Part shown: one piece after another, positions 189 to 1,271 of the stretch
Layout: every line of letters begins with the position of its first letter
How positions within the stretch are numbered: position 1 is the stretch's first letter
IMG/VR virus record: IMGVR_UViG_2690316210_000014
DNA: 7,115 nt
Direction: 5' to 3' (one strand)
Source: a virus
Taxonomy: Duplodnaviria > Heunggongvirae > Uroviricota > Caudoviricetes
Position numbers and translations under genes: made by a program
The notes under the pieces: generated by a model
What the model was told of the DNA's origin: nothing
The model's database searches: none
What the model saw: the letters and a program-made list of their open reading frames with translations, nothing else

Positions 189-1271
189 TCATTTTCTCTG
201 GCTGATCTTTACCGGATAACCATCCCGAAGATCAATTAAGTGCTCCGGTTCAGAAGCAAACCATGCATAAGATCCCCACGCCAATTCTGGTATTGCCTTT
301 TTAAAAGGCAGAGCACTTCTGTCCATAAATGCCGTAAGGAATGCAAGATTTTTCTCGCTGAACCCAGCGTCAATAGCCAAATGAGTGAGAGTAACTTTTC
401 GTTCCCTGTTTATAGGCCCATCTGTCGCAACTACTTCAGTGAAAACTACAAGCATGTCCGAACCCGTTCGGTCCTCTCCCAAATCAATCAAAATAATATC
501 TGGAAGTGCTTTTGAGGCATCAATATTCAGCCCCAATGCTTTTGCCAATACATCATCCTGAGCAACAACTTTATTCCCGGATTCAGACAACCAGAGCACA
601 GTTGGATTCTTAAGAAAATTAGGAGCAAAAACTTCGATGACGGCCTTAGCTATTGTACTTGACGGGCCCGGAGCTAAAGTTCTCTTCTCTCCATTTGGGA
701 AAGTGACGACTACGGCATCAGCAGCAATCACTGCCCCTGATTTCAATAAACGCAACCTAGCAAGAGCGGCTTTGTTCAAATGATTTTCTTGCCAGGAACT
801 TATTGCACTCAGCAGCGAATCTCCTTCAAGCCCGGCATCAAAGAGTGCTGCAAAAGAGCGATTCAAACTGTAACGAGGACGAGAGGATGTGGTGGGTATA
901 CCTTTACGCTCAACAATTGCATTGCAAGGTATTAGGCCATTTTTTATAGTTTCATCACGTATTGGCTCACGCGTATTTTCCGCATACCATGCATCAGCAG
1001 GCCTTATCTTTTGTTTAGAGAAAGTCATCTTTACCCAGCTTTCTCTGGACGCATCATCAGTAAGAGCAGCCTGCGAATCTCCCATACTTACAACCTGGCT
1101 GGGCCTTATCCATCGCCCCAGCCCCTCAACCGCACCAGCATAAAACATGACAAAAATTGTTTTTGCAGCTATTTCCCGAATTAAATATCCACGATTCTCA
1201 GTCCCTTCAGGGAAAATTAATTGTAATCTTTCCCGGATAACATTCAATGGGGGAACAACAGGCAGATTCAT
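189..1271 (-). CDS. Putative Type II restriction endonuclease, partner of the adjacent methyltransferase; family not established (BsuBI/PstI-like is a guess)
   Basis: 360-aa ORF immediately 3' of the methyltransferase on the same strand. Its ATG (1269-1271) overlaps the methyltransferase stop in an ATGA (1268-1271), with GGAG about 10 nt upstream. A possible acidic catalytic segment LPDIILIDLGED...VVFTEVVATD is present, but there is no canonical PD-(D/E)xK lysine. The call is mainly contextual. Confidence 0.55.
   Translation of the reverse strand: MNLPVVPPLNVIRERLQLIFPEGTENRGYLIREIAAKTIFVMFYAGAVEGLGRWIRPSQVVSMGDSQAALTDDASRESWVKMTFSKQKIRPADAWYAENTREPIRDETIKNGLIPCNAIVERKGIPTTSSRPRYSLNRSFAALFDAGLEGDSLLSAISSWQENHLNKAALARLRLLKSGAVIAADAVVVTFPNGEKRTLAPGPSSTIAKAVIEVFAPNFLKNPTVLWLSESGNKVVAQDDVLAKALGLNIDASKALPDIILIDLGEDRTGSDMLVVFTEVVATDGPINRERKVTLTHLAIDAGFSEKNLAFLTAFMDRSALPFKKAIPELAWGSYAWFASEPEHLIDLRDGYPVKISQRK

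Follow-up and report, generated by a model that had tools for sequence, protein, structure and literature searches.

A prophage-borne endonuclease lacking the E-x-K lysine is assigned to the BsuBI/PstI family of type II restriction enzymes

The gene at positions 189..1271 (minus strand) of the window, by which is meant the whole 7,115-nucleotide stretch of DNA that was analysed, very probably codes for a type II restriction endonuclease with two domains that belongs to the BsuBI/PstI/SdaI family. Together with the N6-adenine methyltransferase encoded upstream, the enzyme would make up a restriction-modification (R-M) module lying among the early genes of a Shigella sonnei/E. coli prophage that is lambdoid (Qin/Rac-like) and decayed. 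The 360 aa product is an already annotated, ordinary member of the known BsuBI/PstI family and is most likely a PD-(D/E)XK type IIP restriction enzyme; the evidence comprises the ORF itself, Pfam and PADLOC matches, similarity to SdaI and the existing RefSeq/NCBI annotation. At NCBI this exact protein bears the name 'BsuBI/PstI family type II restriction endonuclease [Shigella sonnei]', and 'BsuBI/PstI family type II restriction endonuclease' is also the RefSeq name of the endonuclease of E. coli FDAARGOS_943 (WP_001053102.1). Beyond its correct annotation the gene matters little, being part of a routine type II R-M module on a prophage remnant.

Judged from its sequence, the ORF is real, far beyond what chance would give. 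It opens with an ATG, and the called start matches the N-termini of its homologues, of which at least 3724 were found at E ≤ 1e-3 in one protein search and 1004, as representatives of 50 % identity clusters, in another. The segments quoted in the original prediction (...ALPDIILIDLGEDRTGSDMLVVFTEVVATDGPINRERK... and ...KALPDIILIDLGEDRTGSDMLVVFTEVVATDGPINRERKVTL...) are present exactly in the 360 aa translation, and the gene does lie, as had been described, directly downstream of the methyltransferase ORF (1268..3100, minus strand). The start codon of the endonuclease and the TGA stop codon of the methyltransferase overlap by 4 bp as ATGA (gcATGAatc; 1268..1271, minus strand); since this overlap lies between genes on the same strand, methyltransferase and endonuclease form a single M-then-R operon. 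Upstream of the methyltransferase, the 214 bp gap that separates it from the next ORF contained no consensus promoter, and a scan for promoters and terminators gave nothing above background.

Both Pfam domains of the family were found, each above its gathering score of 27. PF06616 (BsuBI_PstI_RE, catalytic) matched residues 188–349 (225..710, minus strand) with an E value of 9.3e-45 and 152.2 bits, spanning positions 2–152 of the 154-position profile, and this region is the C-terminal PD-(D/E)XK-fold catalytic domain. PF17728 (BsuBI_PstI_RE_N, N-terminal HTH) matched residues 10–172 (756..1244, minus strand) with an E value of 1.2e-30 and 106.6 bits, and marks the winged-helix DNA-recognition domain. 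The earlier remark that no motif could be recognized in the N-terminal ~200 aa is therefore true of inspection by eye only. The most conserved motif of the N-terminal domain is W95-Y96-A-x-N-T/S-R101-E102-x-x-R105-D106, located on helix 98–113. In addition, the REBASE-derived PADLOC model REase_II (PDLC03589) matched the protein from end to end (2.8e-128). The call of a restriction endonuclease paired with the upstream methyltransferase is borne out, and of the options that had been offered for it the BsuBI/PstI type was the correct one, with the two family domains scoring 107–152 bits against a cut-off of 27.

Comparison with known structures led to the same family. SdaI (PDB 2IXS), a type IIP restriction enzyme that recognizes CCTGCAGG and is the only member of the BsuBI/PstI family with a solved structure, was the sole PDB sequence match (HMMER, E 1.8e-16) and the only significant Foldseek match (E 2.8e-16) to a structural model of the endonuclease. 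An initial model built from 28 close homologues (pLDDT 74.9) was superseded by one built from 71 diverse sequences (pLDDT 91.4). The predicted fold is SdaI-like, with a winged helix and a PD-(D/E)XK restriction-endonuclease core.

The PD and the downstream glutamate that had been picked out as the best acidic segment correspond to P257-D258 (D258 at 498..500, minus strand) and E279 (435–437), and it is likewise correct that no E-x-K lysine follows: E279 is succeeded by V-V-A, with no lysine at +2 or +3. The endonuclease does not contain the strict canonical PD...(D/E)-x-K motif, which places a lysine at +2 from the acid, within one strand. Alignment to SdaI by HMMER, confirmed by a three-way MAFFT alignment, gave the equivalences E213 = E187, D258 = D233, E279 = E248, A282 = K251 and R291 = R260. 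E213 (633..635, minus strand) lies on the first core helix (motif I), whilst E279-V-V-A282 (426..437, minus strand) stands in place of E248-A-V-K251 of SdaI, the glutamate being kept and the lysine position being occupied by alanine. R291-K292 (396..401, minus strand) lies at the start of the helix that follows the third core strand. In the model D258 is predicted just before strand 259–263, E279 within strand 274–280 and R291 at the start of helix 289–301, a placement that, as modelled, is canonical.

The conservation of these positions was assessed in an alignment of 76 sequences, made up of the query, SdaI and 74 cluster representatives (clustered at 50 % identity), all of 300 aa or more and 31–56 % identical to the query. 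D258, E279 and R291 were each conserved in 74 of the 76 sequences, and the position of E213 was acidic in 72. At position 282, by comparison, the six commonest residues were alanine (50 sequences), histidine (7), valine (5), serine (4), tyrosine (3) and phenylalanine (2), and in the printed alignment a lysine appeared in the SdaI row only. Position 292 was basic in 54 of the 76 sequences. Within the close subfamily (28 sequences), A282, R291 and K292 were invariant.

The absence of the lysine is, on comparison of the sequences, a trait of the BsuBI/PstI family and not a mark of divergence or inactivation of the 360 aa protein, because a near-identical relative of a working enzyme also lacks it. 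EcoGIII, which is carried by an Stx phage in E. coli O104:H4 C227-11, is a PstI-like system that reportedly methylates and cleaves CTGCAG (PMC6602927). The enzyme of an Stx2a phage (locus L003, 2824..3777) shares 99 % identity with the homologue found in that strain; its sequence runs PD...E-S-V-T-S-H-G-P-V-D-G-K-R-H, a threonine standing where SdaI has its lysine and the arginine being retained. The passage on SdaI in PMC3045609, which cites the SdaI structure paper, describes a variant E-x-x-K motif with K251 and an extra residue, R260, on the second conserved helix, and states there that both contribute to catalysis, R260 being the more important. R291, the equivalent of R260, is by analogy the likely substitute for the absent strand lysine. 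Within the BsuBI/PstI family the conserved basic residue sits on the following helix, as an arginine, so that a missing E-x-K lysine should not be taken to indicate an unclassified or inactive nuclease; being normal in the family, it leaves the gene an ordinary one.

By analogy with SdaI, the N-terminal winged-helix domain would read the target via the helix that carries R101, E102, R105 and D106, of which R101 and R105 are invariant, and the PD-(D/E)XK-fold C-terminal domain would cut the DNA. E213, D258 and E279 would form the metal-binding centre, this acidic triad binding Mg2+, and R291, probably helped by K292, would supply the positive charge that otherwise comes from the E-x-K lysine. 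The methyltransferase would guard the host's own sites by N6-adenine methylation. The analysis itself shows family membership, the two-domain architecture, the residue equivalences with SdaI, the conservation of E213, D258, E279 and R291, and the pairing with a homologous methyltransferase. From the analogy, and from general PD-(D/E)XK enzymology, we infer both the enzymatic activity and the catalytic roles of these residues; the literature searched contained no activity, biochemical or methylome data on the endonuclease.

The endonuclease differs from SdaI in several respects. It exceeds SdaI by ~40 aa, its N-terminal domain is larger, and the loop joining the PD and E strands has six more residues; A282 replaces K251, and at position 106, on the putative recognition helix, it has aspartate where SdaI has lysine. 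Aspartate was present at this position in 71 of 76 members of the clade, whereas the EcoGIII-type enzyme and SdaI, both of which recognize a CTGCAG core, have arginine or lysine. From the EcoGIII/PstI/BsuBI-type systems, which recognize CTGCAG, the module is set apart by low identity (~27 % for the endonuclease and 25 % for the methyltransferase) and by size, the window's endonuclease and methyltransferase being 360 and 610 aa long compared with 317 and 489 aa for the EcoGIII type. It lies downstream of replication genes, whilst the EcoGIII-type module lies beside cI/cro. The two types nevertheless share the endonuclease Pfam family, homologous methyltransferases, an M-then-R operon with overlapping genes in a lambdoid prophage of E. 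coli/Shigella, and an arginine kept in the absence of the lysine (E-S-V-T in the EcoGIII type). A protein search seeded with the Stx-phage enzyme returned only E. coli variants of 97–100 % identity, so that sampling of the PstI branch was not widened.

The specificity of the window's enzyme may differ from that of the EcoGIII type. There is room for a different specificity, given D106 and the greater size of both the N-terminal domain and the methyltransferase. It is a tentative proposal, which could quite easily be wrong, that the clade of ~360 aa endonucleases with ~600 aa methyltransferases recognizes a site other than CTGCAG or CCTGCAGG and relies for catalysis on the helix-borne R291/K292 alone, with no strand lysine. 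No recognition sequence for the clade was reported in the literature searched (RefSeq accessions, Shigella sonnei methylome); knowing it could aid transformation of S. sonnei and phage work.

The closest relatives form a subfamily of 356–382 aa proteins in Kluyvera, Citrobacter, Serratia, Klebsiella, Burkholderia, Pseudomonas, Arenimonas and others, with 63–89 % identity to the window's endonuclease over the full length (62–89 % in the set of 28 sequences). P-D...E-V-V-A...R-K is invariant amongst them, every member examined follows an Eco57I-domain methyltransferase of 592–610 aa, and nothing of substance distinguishes them from the window's protein. In Burkholderia, in Arenimonas (near a TniQ gene) and in a P2-like prophage of Serratia, endonucleases 64–75 % identical to that of the window were encoded directly after Eco57I-domain methyltransferases of 592–598 aa, in the same M-then-R order and with the genes adjacent or overlapping. 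As the M-R pair recurs in unrelated genomic contexts, it constitutes a mobile two-gene cassette.

The cognate N6-adenine DNA methyltransferase (610 aa; 1268..3100, minus strand) was identified by Pfam, PADLOC and BLASTP. It has the motif DPACGGG (motif I) followed by NPPYG (motif IV) and a long C-terminal target-recognition region, and it matched the Pfam families Eco57I and N6_Mtase and the PADLOC model MTase_II (PDLC03338; 6.7e-300). BLASTP aligned it over 363 aa, C-terminal region included, with the M.BsuBI-like methylase that partners the Stx-phage enzyme (25 % identity, E 7e-27). Both genes of the module are homologous to their Stx-phage partners and are therefore distant homologues of a PstI-type system. 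The RefSeq name of the FDAARGOS_943 methyltransferase (WP_000113425.1) is 'HsdM family class I SAM-dependent methyltransferase', in which 'HsdM family' is merely a generic domain label. Readings as a type I or a type IIG component were rejected: HsdS and HsdR genes are absent, and the best PADLOC matches are to type II models.

Upstream of the methyltransferase lies a small ORF (window 3315–3728, minus strand) of 137 aa when read from a GTG; RefSeq gives a hypothetical protein of 118 aa. Its match to the zinc-ribbon family PF08271 was weak and sub-threshold (E 2e-4), PADLOC gave no match for it, and it accompanies the R-M module in all of the E. coli/Shigella loci seen.

The protein could be a true family member and yet a dead or silent relic, persisting only because the prophage remnant, in a clonal species, is still young; the methyltransferase would then act as a solitary methylase. 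This is unlikely, though several features of the loci point in its direction. The prophage is degraded: IS1 cuts the neighbouring parE-like gene, S. sonnei-type genomes have lost the late genes, and 32 aa are deleted in frame from the dnaC-like gene. With such decay and an adjacent IS1, expression of the endonuclease is not assured. In another locus (L006, 4209–6004; GCA_040189005.1) the methyltransferase was called in two pieces (133 and 428 aa) beside an intact endonuclease identical to that of the window, which reflects either an assembly error or tolerance of the endonuclease without its methylase, the latter arguing for low or no activity. Finally, in phage ArgO145 a related BsuBI-like endonuclease is a pseudogene whereas the methylase next to it is intact, so in the BsuBI/PstI family R can indeed decay before M. 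Against this, the window's endonuclease is full-length and has lost none of the more than 100 invariant residues of the close subfamily, D258, E279 and R291 included; it differs by only 0.1–0.7 % from E. coli copies in more complete prophages, and the window's methyltransferase is an intact 610 aa. In ArgO145 itself (locus L002, 5824–6778) the endonuclease is annotated as frameshifted, with in-frame stops, the loss of the R gene leaving a solitary phage methyltransferase.

It is scarcely credible that the protein is instead a divergent or unclassified nuclease or, as the original prediction had also allowed, a different, non-nuclease effector that merely accompanies the methyltransferase: E279 without a following E-x-K lysine and the absence of a matching NCBIfam model would fit such a reading, but Pfam, PADLOC REase_II, the structural match to SdaI and the RefSeq naming all argue against it, and it is refuted as far as sequence and fold comparison can refute it. 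SdaI was the single strong structural match, and no confident match to a non-nuclease family arose. A non-nuclease effector was accordingly rejected for the 360 aa protein, which sequence and fold comparison place in the BsuBI/PstI family.

The rest of the window holds lambdoid early genes, identified by Pfam as YdaT-like, replication initiator, DnaC/IstB-like, DUF1627 and DUF977. Positions 37–4004 shared 99.2 % identity with a prophage of E. coli FDAARGOS_943 (locus L001); positions 5200–7113 were only 91 % identical to it, and positions 4005–5199 (DUF1627 plus a portion of the dnaC-like gene) had no megablast match there. This pattern is that of a typical lambdoid mosaic in which the R-M module is common to different backbones. 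The endonuclease gene was present in only two of 5426 complete E. coli genomes, and the exact protein was indexed in 4192 blocks of an assembly collection; the prophage remnant carrying the module is very common in Shigella sonnei genomes. A near-identity DNA search of phage genomes matched only the IS1 end (window 1–38), the module being absent from deposited phages at ≥ 85 % identity.

The module is bordered by a terminal inverted repeat of IS1 (1..36), which matched IS1 ends in phage records at 100 %; in the alignment with locus L004 the IS1 genes follow. S. sonnei-type loci have the same IS1 junction as the window. The insertion has left only the last 112 nt of a parE-like toxin gene (window 37–148, plus strand), and an intact ParD/ParE pair occupies the same spot in E. 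coli FDAARGOS_943 (L001, 8386–8960) and in L008. In S. sonnei-type genomes chromosomal ydfI-like genes come directly after IS1, so the late region of the prophage has been lost there. Compared with an otherwise identical 248 aa protein (L004, 1612–2358), the product of the DnaC/IstB-like replication-loader gene (window 4914–5564, minus strand) lacks 32 aa through an in-frame deletion that falls after the Walker A motif and before the Walker B region, which is a further sign of prophage decay.
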